Below are positions 2,896 through 25,415 of a DNA stretch of 30,216 bases, one piece after another. The position numbers were made by a program, and so were the translations under genes. The notes under the pieces were generated by a model that did not search any database, was not told the origin of the DNA, and saw nothing but the letters and a program-made list of their open reading frames with translations. Positions within the stretch are counted from its first letter, which is position 1; the number at the start of each line of letters is the position of its first letter. The stretch spans positions 1-30,216 of the IMG/VR virus record IMGVR_UViG_3300025251_000053; one strand, written 5' to 3'. This DNA is from a virus (Duplodnaviria > Caudoviricetes).

Positions 2896-5800
2896 ATGCC
2901 ATTATATTCTATAGAAGGCCCAGGCGGTAAAACTTATGAAATAGAAGGCCCAGAAAACGCGACGCGAGATCAGGTCATACAGGCTATACAAGCTAAGTTA
3001 ACACCCGAACAGCCGTCAGCAGAAGATGCACTAGAAGATTATTTACAGGCTAGGGCAGATGCAGAGAATGCTAAACGTACTGCTCTTGGACGTGGGTTTC
3101 GTCGTAGTGTAGACTTAACTGGAGAAGGTATAGGCTCTGCTTTAGAGGGGGTAGGTAGTGTTTTAGGACTTGAGGGTCTTGAAGAATATGGCGCTGAAAT
3201 GGCGTTAGAGAACGAGGCTCAACTACAACGTGCAGAAGCATCAGCTACAAGACGGCAAGACGTAGAGGGTCTTGGTACAGGGTTAAGTTACTTTGGAGAA
3301 ACTTTAGCAGAGTCTTCAGTTCCTATGGGTGTTGGTATTGGCACAGGTGCGCTTACGGGAGCACTTGTTGGAGGAGGTATACCTGGAGCTCTTATTGGCG
3401 CAGGAGCAGCGGCACTATCACAACTACCTTTATTTTATGGTTGGAACCGTCAACGACAGAAAGAAGCAATAGAACAAGGAATTAAGACAGAAGTAAGCGA
3501 AGGTGCAGCGTTTTTATCTGCAATACCACAAGCAGCGGCAGAAGGTATTGTTGACCGTTTGTTAGTTGGAGGATTTTTTGCGACGCCGTTAATGAAACAA
3601 GGGGGCGTGCTTACAAGAATAGGTAAAGGGTCAGTCAGAGGTGCAGCGGCTGAAGTACCTACTGAGATAGGACAACAAGTTATTGAGCGTGCCCAAGCAG
3701 GATTATCGTTGACTAGCGATGAGGCTATTAGTGAGTATATAGACGCAGGTGTAGCAGCAGGTATGATCGGTAGCACTGTGGGTGCAGCAGGTAATATACG
3801 AGCAACTACACCAGAAATGCGAGAAGAAGCTCGAAGAACAGCAGCTCAAGAAAAAATCGCAAGGCTAGAAACTGAAGTTGAACCAGACCCAACAGATGAA
3901 ATATTAGCTATACAAGGGCCGCCAGAAATGCAAGGCCCTCCAGATAGACCTACAGCTTTACCAGCGCCAGGCACTCCTGCTGTTATACGCGTTGATACAG
4001 AGGGTAAAGCAAAAACAAGCGAAGAGTTATCTGTTGAACGTGATGAAGGCATAAAAATTGCAGAGCGTGCAAGGCAAGAAATACGTAGGACTGGCGAAGT
4101 ATCATCTAAAACTATGCAGGATTTACGTAACGCTAACATACCTCTTGAGTCTGTAAGTAAGGTACTAGAACAAACAAGAATGGAGCCTAGTTTAGCTAAA
4201 CCTTTAAAAGGAGAAGCCGATGCAGATATTGGAGAGCCTATCACAACAGGAAGTAGAGCTAGCGTTCAAGATGTTATATCAACGAGAGACGATAAGGATG
4301 CCAAGGAGCCTGATGCACCTGAAGAGGCAAGAGTGGACAGCCCTGAGCCTAGCGTTAGACCTGCTGTTGATACAGAAGTCACTGGAGACGATACATTAGA
4401 GGTTACACCGAAAGAAGGTGAAGCAGCCGTAGATTTTCTCGCAAGAAAAAGAGAAGCAGAAAAAACAAAAACTCCAGTTGAAGAAGAGCCTATATTTAAA
4501 GATGAAACAGTAACTAGTCTTTCAGCGTTGACTCGTAATCAACAGGCTAATCTTGATGTAGTAGCAAGAAAACTTGAAGCAGGTGAAATAAGTAGAGCTG
4601 AAGCAAATCAAAGAGCGGTAGACATTAAAACAGGCAGAGTCCCAGCTCAAGTTCAAACCGCTAGAGAATTAAAAACTGAAGAAGTTCAAGCAGCAGAGAT
4701 TAAAAGAGATGAAGCTCAGTTAGCTGAAATAGCTGTAGGAGAACAGGCAGGGCTCGACGCTTCGGCAAGGAAAGACGTTGAAAAACAAGCATCTTTAGAG
4801 AGTATAAACGCAACTAAAGCAGCGTTTGATAAACAAGATAAACGAGGGCGAAGAACTAGATTACAGAGATACGAAGAAGAGTTTTCTACTGTAGCCACAG
4901 ACCCATATGATAGAGGGACTAAAGGCGGTGCGTTAGATTCTTCAGACTTAAAAAAAGTACAAGACCTTGTAACAGGTGCTACTTTACCTAAATCTAATCC
5001 GTTGTTTAAAGTACAAGAGCGGTTACGAAAAGCTCCTTATCCTGCAGATGTGTTGCTAGATGACGCACCACATGAAATATCGGCAAAGGTAAAAAGAACA
5101 CAGAAATCTTCTACTAAAGATCCAAAAACAGGTAAAGAAACTGTAACCGAGTTAGATGCCGCGCTTAATGAAAGAATGCAGAACTCAGTTGAAGCATCAG
5201 CGCTTTCCATAGAAAAATGGGTTAACGAGAATTTATCTGAAAAAGCTAAAGAAAAATTTGCAGCTCAAAAAAGAGAAGAAGTAAGAACTCTTAAAGCACA
5301 AGCAGATTATATAAAAAGACGAAAAACAAGCGAAGACCAGGTAATTATAAACGATAATAACATTAACATTGAGAATGAAAGAGCTAAGTTTGAAGCGGGT
5401 GAGATAACTGAGGCGCAACTTAATAAAAATATAGACCGTATTAGAGAAAAATCTGCGTTGAAAAAATTACCTTTAGATTCGGTATCAAACTTAGATACTC
5501 CTATGCACCCCGTGGTTGTAGAAATGTTAGCCGCAGGTAATCTTGAAGCTGCACTTAAAGGACTATCGATCACGAGCCAAAGTAAACGCGTCAGTGCATT
5601 AGCGAAAGTACTTGCTAACAACATAGGAACTACAAAACTTGAAATAGTAGAAGATTTAGATTCTGCAGGTGTATTTGATCCTAGAACAAACACTATAAGT
5701 TTAAATTCAACAGAGGGTTTAAACACGCACACGTTACTACATGAGATGATACATGCGGTTGTATCTGCCAAGTTAAGCGACAAATCTAACCCCACAACAG

Positions 5801-8800
5801 CACAGCTTAACACGTTATTTAAAAAGGTTAAGGGTTTAATCCCAACTGCTCGTGGCAGTACCAACTTAGATGAGTTTGTTTCTGAAGCTATGAGCAACCC
5901 AGAGTTTCAATCAACACTGGCATCAATAAATATTCAAGGTGAACCCGTAAGTGTATACCGTAGATTTATGAATATAATAGCGAACTTTGGGCGTAAGTTA
6001 GTAGGAGCGCCTACAGTATCACTAACTTACATACCTAACATAAATGACTCTCTTAAAGGTTTAGATGTGTTTTCTGCAATAGATACGTTAGTACAAGGTG
6101 ATAACTTGTTTGACGCTCTTATAGCTCCTGCACCTGAGTATAGAAACGCAGACATGTTACTACTAAACGCAACTGCGGGCGGTGTAAACGAGATGGCAAA
6201 AGCGTTTGGTACTATACAGAAAAAAATTAACAGCTACGACGGTGTAAAGAGTTTTGGGAATAGTATGTTTGACATTCTAAAAAACTTAAGAAAAAGTCCT
6301 AGAGTAGGTATTTTAAAGATATTAGGTACACAAGCTTTGGCAGACGTAGCAGAAAAAGCTGGGTTTGGTAAACTAGCTGAAAATCTACACATAGCAATAG
6401 AAGAACAACGTGGAGCTATGATGGAGTCCGATGCGGCACTAGATGTAGTGATGCGCGATCTCGCTAACTTTAGGAAAGATAACCCTAAACTTAAAGTGGT
6501 TATGGATAAACTTATTTATGATGCAGATTATGGTAGTACCATAAATCAAGTAGACCCACTTCTTTCACAGGCTGATGCTGAAGCACAATATCTTAGGTAT
6601 AAATTTGAATATTTAAACGACAAGGGAGACTTAAAAACTAAGTCATTTAAAACTAAAAAAGATAGAGATGCCGAGTATAAAAAATTTACAGACCCTAAGT
6701 ATGAGGCAGAAAAACTTAATCCTGAATCTGAAAAGATGGATATATGGAAATTACAACAAAAAGAATTAAATAAACTTAACCCTGCGGATAGAAAAAAACT
6801 GTTAGCTCAGTACACCGCATTACGTAATACGTATAGAAACATGTACGAGAAGTTAAAAGACGTACTCTTTGGTCGTGTAGACGCCGCGTTAGCAGAAGAT
6901 CCTGACGCTGCTAAAAAGTTAAAAAGTAGTGTGTTTAAAAAAATATTTAGAGCAAACACTTTAGCTGTGTATTTTCCGCTTACGCGTGAAGGTAACTTTA
7001 AACTAACCTATGCATACAAAAGCGTAGATGAAGCGCCAGAGTCTGAAGCTAACCCGTCTTACGTAGTACGCATGTTTAAGAGCGAAACAGAAAGAGATAG
7101 AGCGGCGGCAGAAATAAGAAAAGATAATAAGTTTGAAAGAGTTGAAACTAGCGACGGTGATTTTAAAGAAGCGCATTTTGAGAACGCTCCCTCATTCTCA
7201 TTCGTAGGTAAAACATTAGACGCGTTAAAAAAAGGAGATGTTAAGGAAGATGTAAGAACAGAAATTGTTCAGTTGTTTATTGATACTTTACCTGAAACTT
7301 CTTTTGCTAAATCATTTAAAAAACGTGAAAATATTGAAGGGTTTATAGAAGATTCTTTAGATGCTTTCCGTATAAAAGCTTATGACTTAGGGCGTCAAAC
7401 TGAACGTCTAGTTCATGGTAAACGTATTAAAGATATAGAACAACAAATAAGCGGTTTAAAAGTACCTGATCCTGCAGCGATGAAAGCCGAGAGCATTGTA
7501 GGTAGAGGCACTGAGGCCATCACCGCATCATTTGCCGACCTAAAAAAGGAGTTGCTGCAGAGAGGGGGTTTTGCACGTAACCCTCCTAGCGAACCTCTTA
7601 TGAAAAAAGCTAATCAGTTTGCGTTTATATACACCATTGGGTTTAACGTATCCTCTGCCATAGTTAACACATCTCAAGTACCGTTGTTTGTGCTCCCATA
7701 TCTCGGCGCTAAGTACGGATACCAACAGAGCGCATCTGACCTTACAAATGCAGGTAGGCTTGTTGGAGGAGCAAAAAATAATATACTAGCGATGTACGAT
7801 AGAAATGAACAAGGTGATTACGTAGTAAAAAGTGATATACCTAAAAACCTTAAAGCAGAATACGAGCTTATGAAACCCGCCGTGCAGATGGCAGCGAAGC
7901 GTGGTCTACTAACAACATCATTCTTAAAGGATGCTTTAGGTCTTGATGAGTCAGGCAGGAAACGTACCATTGGAGATAGTATTTCTTCCATGTCGGCTTT
8001 TTTCTTTAACCACGCAGAACGTTTTAACCGCCAAACTACAATACTTGGGGGGTATAATTTAGAGCTTGAGAAGTTGATGGGTAAATATAAACCCAACGAT
8101 AAACAAAGTAGAACTGAGTATCTTCTAGGCGCTACAACAGAACAGAAAACAGCCGCCGCTAAAGAGGCAATACGCCAAGCACAAGAAACCAACGGTGGAG
8201 CAGTGTTAGAAACAGCCCCCGCCCTTACACAAAAAGGTATTGGTAGAGTTGCGTTTATGTATAAGAGCTACGGACTTCAGATGTATTACACTATGTTGAA
8301 GTCTGCAAAAACTATGATGGACTCTGACATGAACGCTGAACAGCGTAAGATCGCGGCTAAACAATTAGCAGGTGTTCATGGCACAGCGTTATTCTTTGCA
8401 GGTGTTCATGGTGTACCGCTCTACGGTGCGTTTAGTGTACTTTACAATTTACTTATCGCAGGTGAAGACGATGATGATTTTGATACTGTTGTACGCAAAA
8501 CAATAGGAGAGGGTTGGTATAAAGGTGTACCTGCTATGTCAGGCATTGACCCATCTAACCGTATAAGATTAACAGGTCTATTATTACAAGAAAACAAGTT
8601 TGACAGAAACGCTGACTTAGAAGGTTTAATAGGGTTTCATCTTGGTGGCCCATTCTTAAGCAGTGCGAAGAGGATACAACGGGGTGCAAAAGATTTATAT
8701 AACGGGGAATTAATGCGTGGTACAGAAAGTCTTCTACCTGCAGGTGTGGCAAATATGATGAAAGCGTTTCCATTTATAGGCCGCATAGATGCAGAAGGTG

Positions 8801-9216
8801 GTTACAAAACCAGACGTGGCGATATTATCTACGATGATGTAAACGTGCTCGAACGTGCAGGACAGTTCCTTGGTTTTGCTCCTACGGGGTATATGTTAGA
8901 GCAAGAGCGAAACAATATTATCAAGGGTATAGACACCGCCATAAGTAAAAAACGTTCTAAGTTATTAAAACAATACTACGTTGCTAAACGTATGGGTGAC
9001 TTTGACGGCGCACGAGACGTAAGAAAAGAAATGCGTGCGTTTAGTAAGAAGCACAAAGAGGCCGCAATTACTGCCGAAACTATTGACCGTTCTATGAAGC
9101 AACACGCAAAAACATCTTTAGAGATGTACAACGGCATTCGTTTAAACCCACAAATGCGAGAGACTTTGAAAGACAGTCGTAACGATTGGGATCGGGGTTT
9201 ACGGTTGTTTGATTAA
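2896..9216 (+). CDS. Giant internal virion / polyvalent-type protein with zincin-like metallopeptidase motif
   Basis: 2106-aa ORF; N-terminal Gly-rich hydrophobic segments; GVFDP...HTLLHEMIH...DEFVSEA (HExxH at 5740-5754 plus downstream Glu); long helical C-terminal region; last gene of the structural operon. Confidence 0.7.
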   Translation: MPLYSIEGPGGKTYEIEGPENATRDQVIQAIQAKLTPEQPSAEDALEDYLQARADAENAKRTALGRGFRRSVDLTGEGIGSALEGVGSVLGLEGLEEYGAEMALENEAQLQRAEASATRRQDVEGLGTGLSYFGETLAESSVPMGVGIGTGALTGALVGGGIPGALIGAGAAALSQLPLFYGWNRQRQKEAIEQGIKTEVSEGAAFLSAIPQAAAEGIVDRLLVGGFFATPLMKQGGVLTRIGKGSVRGAAAEVPTEIGQQVIERAQAGLSLTSDEAISEYIDAGVAAGMIGSTVGAAGNIRATTPEMREEARRTAAQEKIARLETEVEPDPTDEILAIQGPPEMQGPPDRPTALPAPGTPAVIRVDTEGKAKTSEELSVERDEGIKIAERARQEIRRTGEVSSKTMQDLRNANIPLESVSKVLEQTRMEPSLAKPLKGEADADIGEPITTGSRASVQDVISTRDDKDAKEPDAPEEARVDSPEPSVRPAVDTEVTGDDTLEVTPKEGEAAVDFLARKREAEKTKTPVEEEPIFKDETVTSLSALTRNQQANLDVVARKLEAGEISRAEANQRAVDIKTGRVPAQVQTARELKTEEVQAAEIKRDEAQLAEIAVGEQAGLDASARKDVEKQASLESINATKAAFDKQDKRGRRTRLQRYEEEFSTVATDPYDRGTKGGALDSSDLKKVQDLVTGATLPKSNPLFKVQERLRKAPYPADVLLDDAPHEISAKVKRTQKSSTKDPKTGKETVTELDAALNERMQNSVEASALSIEKWVNENLSEKAKEKFAAQKREEVRTLKAQADYIKRRKTSEDQVIINDNNINIENERAKFEAGEITEAQLNKNIDRIREKSALKKLPLDSVSNLDTPMHPVVVEMLAAGNLEAALKGLSITSQSKRVSALAKVLANNIGTTKLEIVEDLDSAGVFDPRTNTISLNSTEGLNTHTLLHEMIHAVVSAKLSDKSNPTTAQLNTLFKKVKGLIPTARGSTNLDEFVSEAMSNPEFQSTLASINIQGEPVSVYRRFMNIIANFGRKLVGAPTVSLTYIPNINDSLKGLDVFSAIDTLVQGDNLFDALIAPAPEYRNADMLLLNATAGGVNEMAKAFGTIQKKINSYDGVKSFGNSMFDILKNLRKSPRVGILKILGTQALADVAEKAGFGKLAENLHIAIEEQRGAMMESDAALDVVMRDLANFRKDNPKLKVVMDKLIYDADYGSTINQVDPLLSQADAEAQYLRYKFEYLNDKGDLKTKSFKTKKDRDAEYKKFTDPKYEAEKLNPESEKMDIWKLQQKELNKLNPADRKKLLAQYTALRNTYRNMYEKLKDVLFGRVDAALAEDPDAAKKLKSSVFKKIFRANTLAVYFPLTREGNFKLTYAYKSVDEAPESEANPSYVVRMFKSETERDRAAAEIRKDNKFERVETSDGDFKEAHFENAPSFSFVGKTLDALKKGDVKEDVRTEIVQLFIDTLPETSFAKSFKKRENIEGFIEDSLDAFRIKAYDLGRQTERLVHGKRIKDIEQQISGLKVPDPAAMKAESIVGRGTEAITASFADLKKELLQRGGFARNPPSEPLMKKANQFAFIYTIGFNVSSAIVNTSQVPLFVLPYLGAKYGYQQSASDLTNAGRLVGGAKNNILAMYDRNEQGDYVVKSDIPKNLKAEYELMKPAVQMAAKRGLLTTSFLKDALGLDESGRKRTIGDSISSMSAFFFNHAERFNRQTTILGGYNLELEKLMGKYKPNDKQSRTEYLLGATTEQKTAAAKEAIRQAQETNGGAVLETAPALTQKGIGRVAFMYKSYGLQMYYTMLKSAKTMMDSDMNAEQRKIAAKQLAGVHGTALFFAGVHGVPLYGAFSVLYNLLIAGEDDDDFDTVVRKTIGEGWYKGVPAMSGIDPSNRIRLTGLLLQENKFDRNADLEGLIGFHLGGPFLSSAKRIQRGAKDLYNGELMRGTESLLPAGVANMMKAFPFIGRIDAEGGYKTRRGDIIYDDVNVLERAGQFLGFAPTGYMLEQERNNIIKGIDTAISKKRSKLLKQYYVAKRMGDFDGARDVRKEMRAFSKKHKEAAITAETIDRSMKQHAKTSLEMYNGIRLNPQMRETLKDSRNDWDRGLRLFD
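4220..4399 (+). CDS. Candidate overprinted 59-aa ORF in the +1 frame of the giant gene
   Basis: AAAGGAG SD 6 nt before ATG 4220; MQILESLSQQEVELAFKMLYQRETIRMPRSLMHLKRQEWTALSLALDLLLIQKSLETIH*; lies in a low-complexity linker of the host protein. Confidence 0.5.
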   Translation: MQILESLSQQEVELAFKMLYQRETIRMPRSLMHLKRQEWTALSLALDLLLIQKSLETIH

Positions 9217-9246
9217 AAAAACCGCCCGTGTCGGTAGCACGAGCGG
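9215..9246 (-). terminator. Rho-independent terminator between the convergent virion and replication modules
   Basis: Minus strand CCGCTCGTG-ctaccga-CACGGGCGG (9 bp, one G-U) followed by T7. Confidence 0.75.
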
Positions 9247-9294
9247 CCTAGTTAGGGTGGAGAGTGACAGTTATTTCCTGTCTTTCCCTCTATA

Positions 9295-15589: not shown

Positions 15590-16257
15590 CAGTTACTCCC
15601 ATTATAAACACATTCAATTACTGCACAGTGGCGTTTACATAATCCGCTCGGATGTGCGTTCCAAATATCGTTCTCGTATGCTATCTCCATACGCTTGTAA
15701 TTAGACATCCACTTCTCCCAGAGAGAAGGAATCATATCTTCAGTATACTTATCTTTAACAATATTATTTATTTTGACAAACAATAATGCGGCGTTCACCT
15801 GTTTTATTTCTGGGAAATACTTAAACGTAGCGAGTGCCATCAGCTCTAACTGTCCTTTGTCTGCGTAAGCAGAAGACTTACCTGTCTTGTAGTCCACGAC
15901 CCACGCCTTACTATCATCAACAATAACAAGGTCAGCGATACCACGCCACCAAACATTCTTATCTCTAAAGCCACAAGGCTCTAGCTCTCTGGTCAACCCC
16001 ATCTTTATTTCTGTTAACTTCTTACCACGTCTTTTGTTAAGTGACTCCAGGGCCCCCTCCATGTAGGAGAACTTACTAGGCACTGGTTTCCCATCTCTTA
16101 TGTATTCTTCAGCCACAAGATGGGCTTCAGTACCATACCGCATGGCATCTGTTTGTGGTTCTGGGTAATCTTTAGCTATCTTCATATGGTAAAATTGTTT
16201 GGGGCATTGCTCGAACGCCTTAATCTTACTAAATGACCACGGGGCTATACTCATCAA
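15589..16257 (-). CDS. Cas4/RecB-like PD-(D/E)XK nuclease
   Basis: WSFSKIKAFEQCP, GTEAH, IADLVI...VVDYKTG, QLELM; one N-terminal Cys plus C-terminal CKRHCAVIEC (1+3 Cys, Fe-S staple pattern). Confidence 0.85.
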   Translation of the reverse strand: MMSIAPWSFSKIKAFEQCPKQFYHMKIAKDYPEPQTDAMRYGTEAHLVAEEYIRDGKPVPSKFSYMEGALESLNKRRGKKLTEIKMGLTRELEPCGFRDKNVWWRGIADLVIVDDSKAWVVDYKTGKSSAYADKGQLELMALATFKYFPEIKQVNAALLFVKINNIVKDKYTEDMIPSLWEKWMSNYKRMEIAYENDIWNAHPSGLCKRHCAVIECVYNGSN

Positions 16258-16568
16258 TGAAGCTTTGATTTATCAACCCAAGTAATTTGGATTGTAACCC
16301 CACCTAAATTATTCTCTCTAGTTTCAGATGTAAATTCGTCTTCGTGCCCACATTTAACACACAAAGTTTTAAATTTAGAATCAACAGCATAAGTAAATTC
16401 TGTAAAACTATCGCACTTTCTACAGTCTGCAAACGTGTCAAGAACTTGTTGGATTACATCATCCGATGTTGAGTCTGTCATAAAGCGTTCAGTTATACCT
16501 CGCAAACTTGCGCGATCTAACCTATGTGATTCGCCAAGATCTAATTTTTTTACTTCTTCTTTTTTCAT
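16254..16568 (-). CDS. Hypothetical Zn-ribbon protein
   Basis: CRKC...CVKC; ATGA overlaps on both sides. Confidence 0.6.
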   Translation of the reverse strand: MKKEEVKKLDLGESHRLDRASLRGITERFMTDSTSDDVIQQVLDTFADCRKCDSFTEFTYAVDSKFKTLCVKCGHEDEFTSETRENNLGGVTIQITWVDKSKLH

Positions 16569-22956: not shown

Positions 22957-24192
22957 TTACATATTGTTTGATTTGACGTGGACTACTTTACCCACGCTTG
23001 GTTTCGCGGTCTTATTATCTAAGACTGTCCACAGTACAGGGCATGTCCACTGACCCCAACCACCGTACAGGTAACCATCTGTTAACACGATAACGGCTTG
23101 TGGTTTAATGCCATGCTCGGCCATATACTCTGGCACACACTCTACATTCGTACCACCGCCACCTCTCGGCTTGGTTGACTTGACCAACGTATCCAGTTCA
23201 TGTGTCTCGTACTTCTCATCACGACACACCTCGGTATCCCAATACAACACGCGTACACATGACGGCTTGACCGTATCACAGATAGACTTGATCTCAGACA
23301 AGAACACCGACAATTCATTCCTGCCAATCGAGCCTGATGTATCAATAGCTAATACCAGTTCCTCGACCTTCTCAGAGATACCGCTTGGCATATAGATATC
23401 CATACCAATGTATCTGCGGTTGGGCTTGTTCCACGTAGAGTAGTCACTCCCTGCACATGTAGACGAGATGAACTCACGCAACACCTCACGCCAGTTGACT
23501 TGGGGTTCAAGTAGCTCACCCAGATCACGCGCACCCTTGTTGCCTAGCTTCCCTGCAACCATGTCACCTTGGCGTATCGCTTCGTCGATCTCACGTTCGA
23601 GTTCTTGCTTCTCGCCCTCGGTCATCTCCTTCGCACCCTCGAAGTCATGGTCATCGAACGGCTCACCGATAGCGGTGTTTTGTTCACCTGTGGTACTTGA
23701 ATCACCTCCGCCATTAACGTCGCCATCACCTGATGACGTGTTACCTTGTTTCTTCTCATACAGTAGCTTGAACACTTCCTCGGTATTCATACCCCGATAC
23801 TTCTCATCGAGACACCCACCATCGATCCACTCCACGAACCCATTCTTGTTCTCGTCCATGATCTGTATGTTGATAACATAGTCCATTGCCATGTTTGTCA
23901 GTTCAGGATCTAGCTTGGCCAGATGTTGGTAGTTGTGAATGTGTCTGTACATCTTGTGTCCTACTTCGTGCAGTACAAGAAAGCGCAGTTGCGGATCGGT
24001 CAACCCTGCAACAAACTCACGACCATAGTACTCATCTCTACCGTTGGTGTAGGCAGTTGGTACATCATCTTTGATGCCCCTCTCACCCACCATCAACACA
24101 CCAGACAACGCGGCGTAGTCATCGTTGCCCATGATAGAGACAACGGCCTTGGATAGGCGTTGCTCCTCAGTTAGATTATTTAACATTAACAT
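22957..24192 (-). CDS. DUF2201-type metallopeptidase fused to a vWA-like domain
   Basis: TAYTNG, LVLHEVGHKMYRH (HExxH), NMAMDYVIN; Gly/Asp linker; MIDAS AIDTSGSI, GGGGT, VLTDGY. Confidence 0.85.
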   Translation of the reverse strand: MLMLNNLTEEQRLSKAVVSIMGNDDYAALSGVLMVGERGIKDDVPTAYTNGRDEYYGREFVAGLTDPQLRFLVLHEVGHKMYRHIHNYQHLAKLDPELTNMAMDYVINIQIMDENKNGFVEWIDGGCLDEKYRGMNTEEVFKLLYEKKQGNTSSGDGDVNGGGDSSTTGEQNTAIGEPFDDHDFEGAKEMTEGEKQELEREIDEAIRQGDMVAGKLGNKGARDLGELLEPQVNWREVLREFISSTCAGSDYSTWNKPNRRYIGMDIYMPSGISEKVEELVLAIDTSGSIGRNELSVFLSEIKSICDTVKPSCVRVLYWDTEVCRDEKYETHELDTLVKSTKPRGGGGTNVECVPEYMAEHGIKPQAVIVLTDGYLYGGWGQWTCPVLWTVLDNKTAKPSVGKVVHVKSNNM

Positions 24193-24320
24193 TTTGTTTT
24201 CCTCTCTAGCCAGTGGCTAATTAAAATGGTGGTTCATCGTCGGGTTCTTCGGGCAACCATACGATATCGTATTGAAACATCGCCCAAAGAAACTCACGTA
24301 GATTTCTACCATATAACACC

Positions 24321-25415
24321 TTACTTCTTATCAGCAGTGAACATATACGTGTTGTCCTTCGCCCACTCAGTGAACTTGGCGTTAGACATAACCACGTCGA
24401 TCCTACTGTACTTCGGGTTCCTCGCACCATTGACGAACATACCTTGGGCTTCTTTGTTTAGCCTTGGCATGTAGTCCATCCACGCGTTGATCCAGTCTTT
24501 CTCCATCGATGCCAATGATCTGTACACAACCATACACGTGGCACTCGCACTGTCTGGAACCCTCGCGTTCTTGGGATCATTCTTGATACTGTCGAGTGAC
24601 GGTAATTGATCCGCTAGTTTGACAAAGGCCATCATGTCCATCGCACCTTGCTCACCGATAGTACCCATGAGTAAACTTGTTAGGGTGTGATCATCTATCG
24701 ACCCTCGTGCGTGCAGTAAGTCGGACGCCATATGTAGGGAACGTGGTGTCGTAAAGGCCGTGCGTTGTAGTTGTGGGTGATAGATGTATGGGTTCTCAGT
24801 TGGGTCTTTGACATCTTCGAATGTCTGCAATACCGCAGGGAAGTCTTTGACAAACCCCAATACCGATGGGTGTACATCGTTGTTGATACCCCACTCGATC
24901 CACTCAAGGTGGTCAGGTTTACGTATCTTAACAGTTGCTACACGATCACGTTGATGTGGTAACAACATATCACCAACGCCCTCTGCTCCAAGGTTCGTCG
25001 TGGCAAACACGATGCTTCCCTCTGGTAGTTCATAGCTACCAATCTTGCGCTCTAGTATAATACGCAGTAGTGCGTTCTTCACCGCAGGGTTAGCTTTACC
25101 GAACTCGTCAATCATCAGTATGATAGGTTTGTTCAAGTGTACGCCAAGTTCTTCATTGGTTGCATAGGTCACATAGTTCTGACCATCTAACTGTGCCATC
25201 TTCGGTATCATAATGTCACCGAGATCCTTGGTGGTACAGTCGAAGTAACAGGGCGTATGGTTTGGTAGTCGCTCTGCTAGTGTCGTAAGCATCGACGATT
25301 TACCGATACCCATGTGACCTTGAGCAAGTATGGTTCGCTTGTCACCATATGCCACGATTGCATCTACGCATTGGTCAAGTGACACCGCGTACATTTGTGT
25401 TGCTGAATTATTCAT
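24321..25415 (-). CDS. MoxR-like AAA+ ATPase
   Basis: Walker A GHMGIGKS, Walker B IDEF, ATTN sensor, TPRS; adjacent to the vWA gene. Confidence 0.85.
   Translation of the reverse strand: MNNSATQMYAVSLDQCVDAIVAYGDKRTILAQGHMGIGKSSMLTTLAERLPNHTPCYFDCTTKDLGDIMIPKMAQLDGQNYVTYATNEELGVHLNKPIILMIDEFGKANPAVKNALLRIILERKIGSYELPEGSIVFATTNLGAEGVGDMLLPHQRDRVATVKIRKPDHLEWIEWGINNDVHPSVLGFVKDFPAVLQTFEDVKDPTENPYIYHPQLQRTAFTTPRSLHMASDLLHARGSIDDHTLTSLLMGTIGEQGAMDMMAFVKLADQLPSLDSIKNDPKNARVPDSASATCMVVYRSLASMEKDWINAWMDYMPRLNKEAQGMFVNGARNPKYSRIDVVMSNAKFTEWAKDNTYMFTADKK

Follow-up and report, generated by a model that had tools for sequence, protein, structure and literature searches.

The window and its giant gene

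The window, that is the whole stretch of DNA analysed here, is a 30,216-base virus record with an estimated completeness of 49%, whose sequence is present in marine metagenome runs; over 6,900 bases it shares an identical sequence with a 70.6-kb contig. Its minus strand carries a replication block with PolA, SNF2 helicase, SSB, DUF927 primase and AAA plus DUF2201 genes, and its plus strand carries the end part of a structural gene run. The terminase is 44-47% identical to those of pelagiphages HTVC023P and HTVC027P and the polymerase about 36% identical to those of Rhizobium phage RHph_TM3_14A and Pseudomonas phage KPP25; our comparisons thus brought up no cultured phage closely related to the window. 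The AAA ATPase and DUF2201 metallopeptidase/VWA genes form a pair in the early region (22957-25415, minus strand); RHph_TM3_14A likewise has ATPase and metallopeptidase genes.

The last gene of the plus-strand run in the window (2896-9216) encodes a giant polyvalent/DarB-like protein of 2106 amino acids, which matches phrog_10089 (E 4e-44) and phrog_6958 (E 9e-14) and is 24-28% identical to DarB-like/PLxRFG proteins. Its PHROG matches are to DarB-like and virion families, the gene lies two genes downstream of a weak “DNA ejection protein” match, and the protein is likely to be a virion or ejection protein. It possesses a zincin-like region with an HExxH motif (HTLLHEMIHA; 5473-6045, plus strand), as in the polyvalent proteins whose MPTase domain is described in the accessible text of PMC5512222. 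A +2-frame stop-free stretch of 95 codons in the giant gene (3198-3485, plus strand) has no ATG and is at chance level (shuffle P 0.077). Right behind the stop of the giant gene, between two convergent gene runs, a 12-pair hairpin followed by a T tail (9219-9249) is possibly a shared terminator. Among the 109 scorable giants, the longest ORF of the 1.5 kb downstream is always carried by the opposite strand (109/109).

A 59-amino acid open reading frame in the +1 frame

The giant gene holds in its +1 frame a fully nested ORF of 59 amino acids (4220-4399, plus strand), running from an ATG at 4220 to a TAG at 4397-4399 and preceded, with a 6-nt spacer, by the Shine-Dalgarno (SD) sequence AAAGGAG (4207-4213, plus strand). 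This ORF had been proposed as an overprinted gene by a first-pass annotation of the window, and we confirmed its frame, its length and its SD. The overlap corresponds to amino acids 438-502 of the 2106-amino acid giant, inside a hypervariable linker upstream of the zincin-like region. It coincides with the longest +1 stop-free stretch of the giant gene (63 codons), and a +1-frame stop is found directly upstream (4205-4207), four codons ahead of the nested ATG. When the giant gene was shuffled 2000 times among synonymous codons, a +1 ATG ORF of at least 59 amino acids arose in 15.7% of the shuffles, and such an ORF together with an SD of at least 6 nt in none of them (0/2000); as these thresholds were set after seeing the ORF, it is the comparative data that carry the gene claim.

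The excess of G/C-ending codons that the annotation had attributed to the main frame at the overlap did not hold up gene-wide. The overlap has 18 such codons out of 61, for a gene-wide expectation of 15.4 ± 3.3, and 41% of the 61-codon windows in the giant gene match or exceed this count; compared with the local background only (12.1 ± 3.0), it is marginally high.

A search for an internal promoter of the nested gene gave eight sigma70-like sites for 13.7 expected, none above chance, and no convincing k-mer was shared upstream of the nested gene. The gene would be co-transcribed with the late operon and translated from its own SD. A +1 frameshift fusion was set aside, given the +1 stop four codons ahead of the ATG and the conservation of the SD and start.

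Selection on the +1 frame

Comparison with relatives of the window makes it nearly certain, on sequence grounds, that this stretch is a real overprinted second gene. In four relatives that were found via the main frame (L008-L011), DNA conservation forms an island that corresponds exactly to positions 4205-4398, the linker being unalignable elsewhere, and in this island the +1 peptide is 64-68% identical versus 31-37% for the main frame. Over ten pairs with the window, identity amounts to 299/582 residues (51%) in the +1 frame versus 149/582 (26%) in the main frame. The changed codons of these pairs comprise 13 synonymous and 433 non-synonymous changes in the main frame and 146 and 283, respectively, in the +1 frame; the corresponding counts in a single-coding control region are 35/25 and 45/45.

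The signals for translation are also maintained. An SD of at least 5 nt precedes 99 of 116 nested genes versus 43 of 831 other +1 stretches of the same genes, counted by the same rule. The start codon lies 50-90 codons before the end in all 180 peptides having an upstream stop, a count from which the cut or chimeric L003, L006, L016 and L028 were excluded; in L006 (3719-4028), an abrupt divergence of peptide and main frame past residue 45-47, together with a stop in the giant frame, suggests a chimeric contig end. At the last nested codon, several main-frame residues occur (A/T/P/S) although the synonymous base of the main frame does not change, which places the constraint on the +1 frame. Finally, the N-terminal helix of the peptide is conserved family-wide although it was absent from our search patterns, Ala15 being invariant in 148 rows.

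Alternatively, the frame could be open by chance or as a side effect of constraint on the main frame, since shuffling yields a +1 ATG ORF of this length at the rate given above and the support for the nested gene comes from sequence. The suppression of synonymous change, the conserved SD, start and stop, and a +1 frame conserved above the main frame largely refute this explanation, which we consider extremely improbable. These same features bear out the dual-coding constraint put forward by the first-pass annotation: homologues keep a start and the open +1 frame and in most cases the SD, with suppressed synonymous variation.

The nested gene further behaves as if it were a protected cassette. 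Among near-identical strains, the linker is swapped or deleted at 3878-4207 and 4399-4468, the breakpoints coinciding with the SD and the stop. In L001 and at a contig joint in run X13, the 70 nt at 4399-4468 (plus strand) are replaced by 4 nt, with 66 nt lost from the nested stop onward and the main frame kept in frame; as this indel turns the nested stop from TAG into TAA, the peptide is unchanged. In L002, the upstream linker is swapped right up to AAGGAG, with a (PE)n repeat upstream. The RNA-run contigs come from variant strains and inform at the contig level only.

Distribution of the nested gene

Two degenerate DNA patterns each retrieved at least 120 loci from IMG/VR, with an estimated ~770 and ~610 matching stretches. 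Among the 240 pattern-found loci, 160 are flanked and 159 of these have a main frame of at least 500 amino acids with the peptide in +1; the one exception, L235, has a main frame broken upstream. In the 80 short loci, the main frame is open end to end. The family amounts to 192 distinct peptides from related uncultured aquatic phages and, in 116 distinct complete giants (1265-3204 amino acids), the peptide is located at amino acids 357-847.

Independently, 80 loci were recruited by a C-terminal main-frame motif, of which 33 that were cut at the 5′ end were excluded and 47 kept. These 47 giants were thus sampled independently of the nested ORF, which is present in 36 of them (30 of the 40 distinct ones). 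Nine of the 11 giants without it are complete, L352 and L370 having an upstream part that is short or split; for two of these nine, whose records are 92% and 98% complete, the ORF is absent record-wide. Thus, the nested gene is common but accessory. It tolerates giants whose C-terminal parts are no more than 26-33% alike, and the peptide is much more conserved than the linker. No standalone gene for the peptide was seen among the 240 pattern-found loci.

This distribution weakens the obligate chaperone and the in-cis peptidase inhibitor that had been advanced earlier as possible products. A peptide that is always inside the same gene and never alone would be co-expressed with the giant, as suits a transient assembly chaperone or scaffold of the giant protein, its His tail (see below) then only marking it for disposal by Lon. 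We regard this as unlikely, considering that the peptide is missing from nine complete close giants, that it accepts divergent giants and outstrips the linker in conservation and that its fixed tail length seems to exceed the needs of simple disposal. As for an in-cis inhibitor that would place its C-terminus in the zinc site of the giant’s HExxH peptidase, the motif is present in 104 of 116 carrier giants and autoprocessing by the MPTase is proposed in the accessible text of PMC5512222. However, 12 of the 116 carriers have no HExxH (L243, L214, L077, L066, L087, L117, L062, L128, L126, L115, L073 and L304) and all nine complete non-carrier giants keep it intact, which leaves this explanation very improbable.

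Outside IMG/VR, a scan of GTDB with A4 gave no match, and a pattern scan of GTDB gave 17 stretches, eight of which are true members (L294, L295, L299, L300, L301, L303, L304 and L308). All lie on contigs assigned to MAGs from diverse taxa (Flavobacteriaceae, Polaromonas, Caulobacteraceae, Methylopumilus, Nanopelagicales, Saccharibacteria, Legionella and unclassified) and are probably mis-binned phage contigs; these taxa being unrelated, they give no host call. None of the five cultured phages KPP25, RHph_TM3_14A, 1F273_PE002, Skulduggery and HTVC023P matches the nested peptide.

A predicted soluble helical peptide

The product is predicted to be a soluble helical peptide. Its AF2 model is a small helical bundle, with helices at residues 9-21 and 36-58 plus short turns, and has a pLDDT of 82.0 with an 18-row alignment and of 83.5 with a 148-row alignment. 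The leucine richness (13 of 59 residues) and helical character noted in the first-pass annotation are upheld. The family is mildly acidic, with a median net charge of -4. A lipobox is found in 0 of 189 peptides, and the 19-residue hydropathy peaks at 1.28, none of the 189 reaching 1.6; this absence of lipoboxes and transmembrane segments speaks against the lysis factor suggested previously.

Searches with the single peptide sequence returned nothing from the protein database or from the ESM Atlas. The search of phage genomes by tblastn that had been recommended, run with two members on 50,697 phage records, gave only chance-level matches. With 9 and then 148 members, Pfam and PHROGs gave scattered weak matches only, and the best E of a PDB sequence profile was 0.22. 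Fold searches gave no match in BFVD at E ≤ 0.001 and none in the PDB with Foldseek; the best match of a VIA-wide fold search (Z 5.4, rmsd 3.0 over 59 residues) is a generic helical arrangement. This lack of fold matches does not show that the fold is new.

The C-terminal tail and the Lon His-degron

In the window, the C-terminal tail of the peptide (residues 52-59; 4373-4399, plus strand) ends with ETIH-stop, the family pattern being E-K-x-x-S-P-(L/V/I)-(H/Q)-stop. The stop falls exactly six residues past E-K in 107 of 108 unique peptides, the search pattern having left the end free, and the penultimate residue is L, V or I in 107 of the 108. The last residue is H in 59 of them, Q in 48 and N in one. 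Among the nearer relatives of the window, a set of giants retrieved through the main frame, H is the last residue in 29 of 30.

This end resembles the autonomous Lon degron x-L/I-L/I/V-H, for which the accessible text of PMC11986505 gives TLH, TVH and SLH among the working ends. It departs from the degron at position -2, where L or I would be expected: this residue is P in 62, L in 6 and I in one of the 108 peptides, and T in the window. In the same source (PMC11986505, Table S1), the half-life of a reporter with Yersinia Lon rises from 152 to 402 min upon H-to-Q substitution; since H-to-Q slows decay, the canonical end is missing from about a quarter to half of the family. On the peptide tree, H and Q interchange 22 times versus a shuffled mean of 41.9, and the Q end is tied to P at -2 (45/48 versus 17/58, p 3e-12). 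The Q-ending members may depend on the helical surface or on another pocket of Lon; alternatively, the real partner may not be Lon.

The orthologues of Smg, a high-affinity Lon substrate, have the same proportion of H ends as the nearer relatives of the window (H in 29 and Q in one of 30), and Smg and the peptide both have a hydrophobic/acidic helix at comparable spacing from the C-terminus (L at -10, acidic at -7). Aligned with Smg/DUF494 (L388-L417), the A5 peptide profile gave an hhalign probability of 25.6% (E 7e-4, in one comparison and over 37 columns); the likeness is weak and pairs the first helix of the peptide with an Smg helix. It is possible that the peptide mimics Smg.

Among the 25 listed ORFs of the window, the only other His-ending protein is encoded by a 104-amino acid ORF located between the polymerase and the exonuclease (16254-16568, minus strand); it ends with KLH, possibly a second Lon-type end.

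Predicted complex with Lon

We predicted the complex of the peptide, with its 148-row alignment, and residues 1-205 of Lon from one stand-in species, Caulobacter. The ipSAE is 0.73 versus 0.31 for the best of three controls, none of which was another His-ending peptide; runs agree in 100% of contacts and the pLDDT of the partners is at least 81. Of the solved pairs used for calibration, 116 of 157 attain this score mark, as do 2 of 215 mismatched pairs; the calibration applies only roughly to a prediction made with our own alignment.

In the model, His59 sits in the LarA pocket, among Lon residues 10-13, 25-29 and 32. The predicted interface is wider than the bare tail and involves residues 9-21 and 46-59 of the peptide, with the helices 9-21 and 46-53 adding surface. 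On the Lon side, it includes L12, I15, L25, R29 and T83, all five residues named from the LarA crystal structure, which in the accessible text of PMC11882793 are contacted by the terminal His of LarA bound to the Lon N-domain. It is possible that the pass owes to model memory of, or likeness to, this solved LarA-Lon complex. The entropy of the interface residues is low (1.67 versus 2.48 bits); part of this difference is circular, several of these residues having been imposed by the search patterns. As judged from this modelling, the peptide probably binds Lon.

The partner might nonetheless be another conserved host protein that reads (L/V)-(H/Q) C-termini, in which case the Lon docking would be model memory. 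The interchange of H and Q on the tree, the tie of Q to P at -2 and the fact that Q is a poor Lon end are consistent with such a partner, but our sequence, family and fold searches suggest none and the controlled Lon score is high. We thus hold this to be improbable, to about the same degree as the chaperone.

Proposed function

We propose that the product of the nested gene is a Lon-binding decoy or inhibitor that protects late phage proteins, a reading to which we give, from the model and by analogy, a probability of about 0.48. The peptide would dock on the N-terminal substrate-recognition domain of Lon through its (L/V/I)-H tail and its two helices and act there as a decoy or inhibitor. 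Lon would thus be blunted late in infection and phage proteins spared. Indeed, a protective decoy or inhibitor is what best fits a folded binder encoded within the last gene of a structural run. From the functions initially listed by the first-pass annotation, it is “regulatory factor” that agrees best with what is now a predicted Lon binder, lysis being unsupported and the chaperone and peptidase inhibitor having lost ground.

Binding alone gives no direction, since LarA activates Lon from the same pocket. The inhibitory direction is proposed by analogy with Dap2 and lambda CIII, and we place it just short of even odds. The same tail and the same complex prediction would equally suit a LarA-like activator, or an NblA-type adaptor delivering a host target such as a defence or division protein for degradation. 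Activation of Lon by LarA through this pocket is described in the accessible text of PMC10665427 and PMC11882793, and two of 148 members weakly match Pfam NblA (PF04485; best E 0.0019). Nevertheless, these matches are at chance level for leucine helices, NblA is not among the listed fold matches, the all-helical model is unlike the four-stranded core that provides the substrate pocket of LarA, and both conserved helices face Lon in the prediction. We therefore see an activator or adaptor as rather unlikely, although less so than the chaperone or another partner.

More tentatively than the decoy or inhibitor itself, we suggest that a widely distributed set of aquatic phages encodes, within the putative ejection-protein gene, a mimic of the bacterial His-degron with a de novo fold, which would clamp Lon at its allosteric N-domain site. 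Such peptides would form a new family of phage Lon modulators whose His-ending and Pro-Leu-Gln-ending variants are adapted to the Lon proteases of different hosts, and the gene would move as a cassette delimited by the SD and the stop.

Relation to known systems

Phages are already known to overprint genes and to encode Lon inhibitors. T4 PinA is a phage Lon inhibitor, and lambda Rz1 is encoded by an embedded +1 gene. Like Rz1, the nested gene is entirely contained, in the +1 frame, within a permissive part of a larger gene; unlike Rz1-type o-spanins or holins, its products have neither a lipobox cysteine nor a membrane segment in 189 peptides.

Dap2 of Pseudomonas phage PaoP5 inhibits Lon and thereby protects a packaging enzyme, a nuclease (accessible text of PMC13083879), and blunting Lon so that late phage proteins survive is the job that we propose for the nested peptide. 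Going by that description, Dap2 is set apart by its dependence on E97/E99 and by its gene being a neighbour of dap1 and not a nested one. Lambda CIII is a short phage polypeptide that inhibits a host AAA+ protease while also being its substrate (accessible text of PMC1838920), but it targets FtsH and controls lysogeny, and no match to it was found in the Pfam and PHROG searches of 148 members.

As described for Caulobacter crescentus, LarA is also a small protein with a hydrophobic-His end that occupies the Lon N-domain pocket predicted for the peptide. The peptide differs from LarA by being all-helical (LarA is alpha/beta, with a four-stranded sheet), phage-encoded and overprinted, and none of the 148 members matches the LarA family in Pfam. 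The (L/V/I)-H end and the Smg-like helix before the tail recall the Lon His-degron class of SulA, Smg and Y2853, at least as presented in the accessible text of PMC11986505; the invariant tail distance, the predominance of Pro at -2 and the many Gln ends distinguish the peptide family from this class. No description of the nested gene was found in the open-licence literature searched.

Altogether, these results reveal an unannotated protein family, whose members gene callers mostly miss because they are fully nested, and a clear example of selection acting more strongly on a nested gene than on the frame surrounding it. If the docking on Lon holds, the peptide would be a natural probe, 59 residues long, for the allosteric site in the Lon N-domain, and its H versus PLQ ends would offer a large allelic series occurring in nature with which to ask how the various Lon proteases read C-termini. 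If the proposed function is true, Lon counter-defence, which is known from a few isolated phage proteins, would reach an abundant group of uncultured phages.
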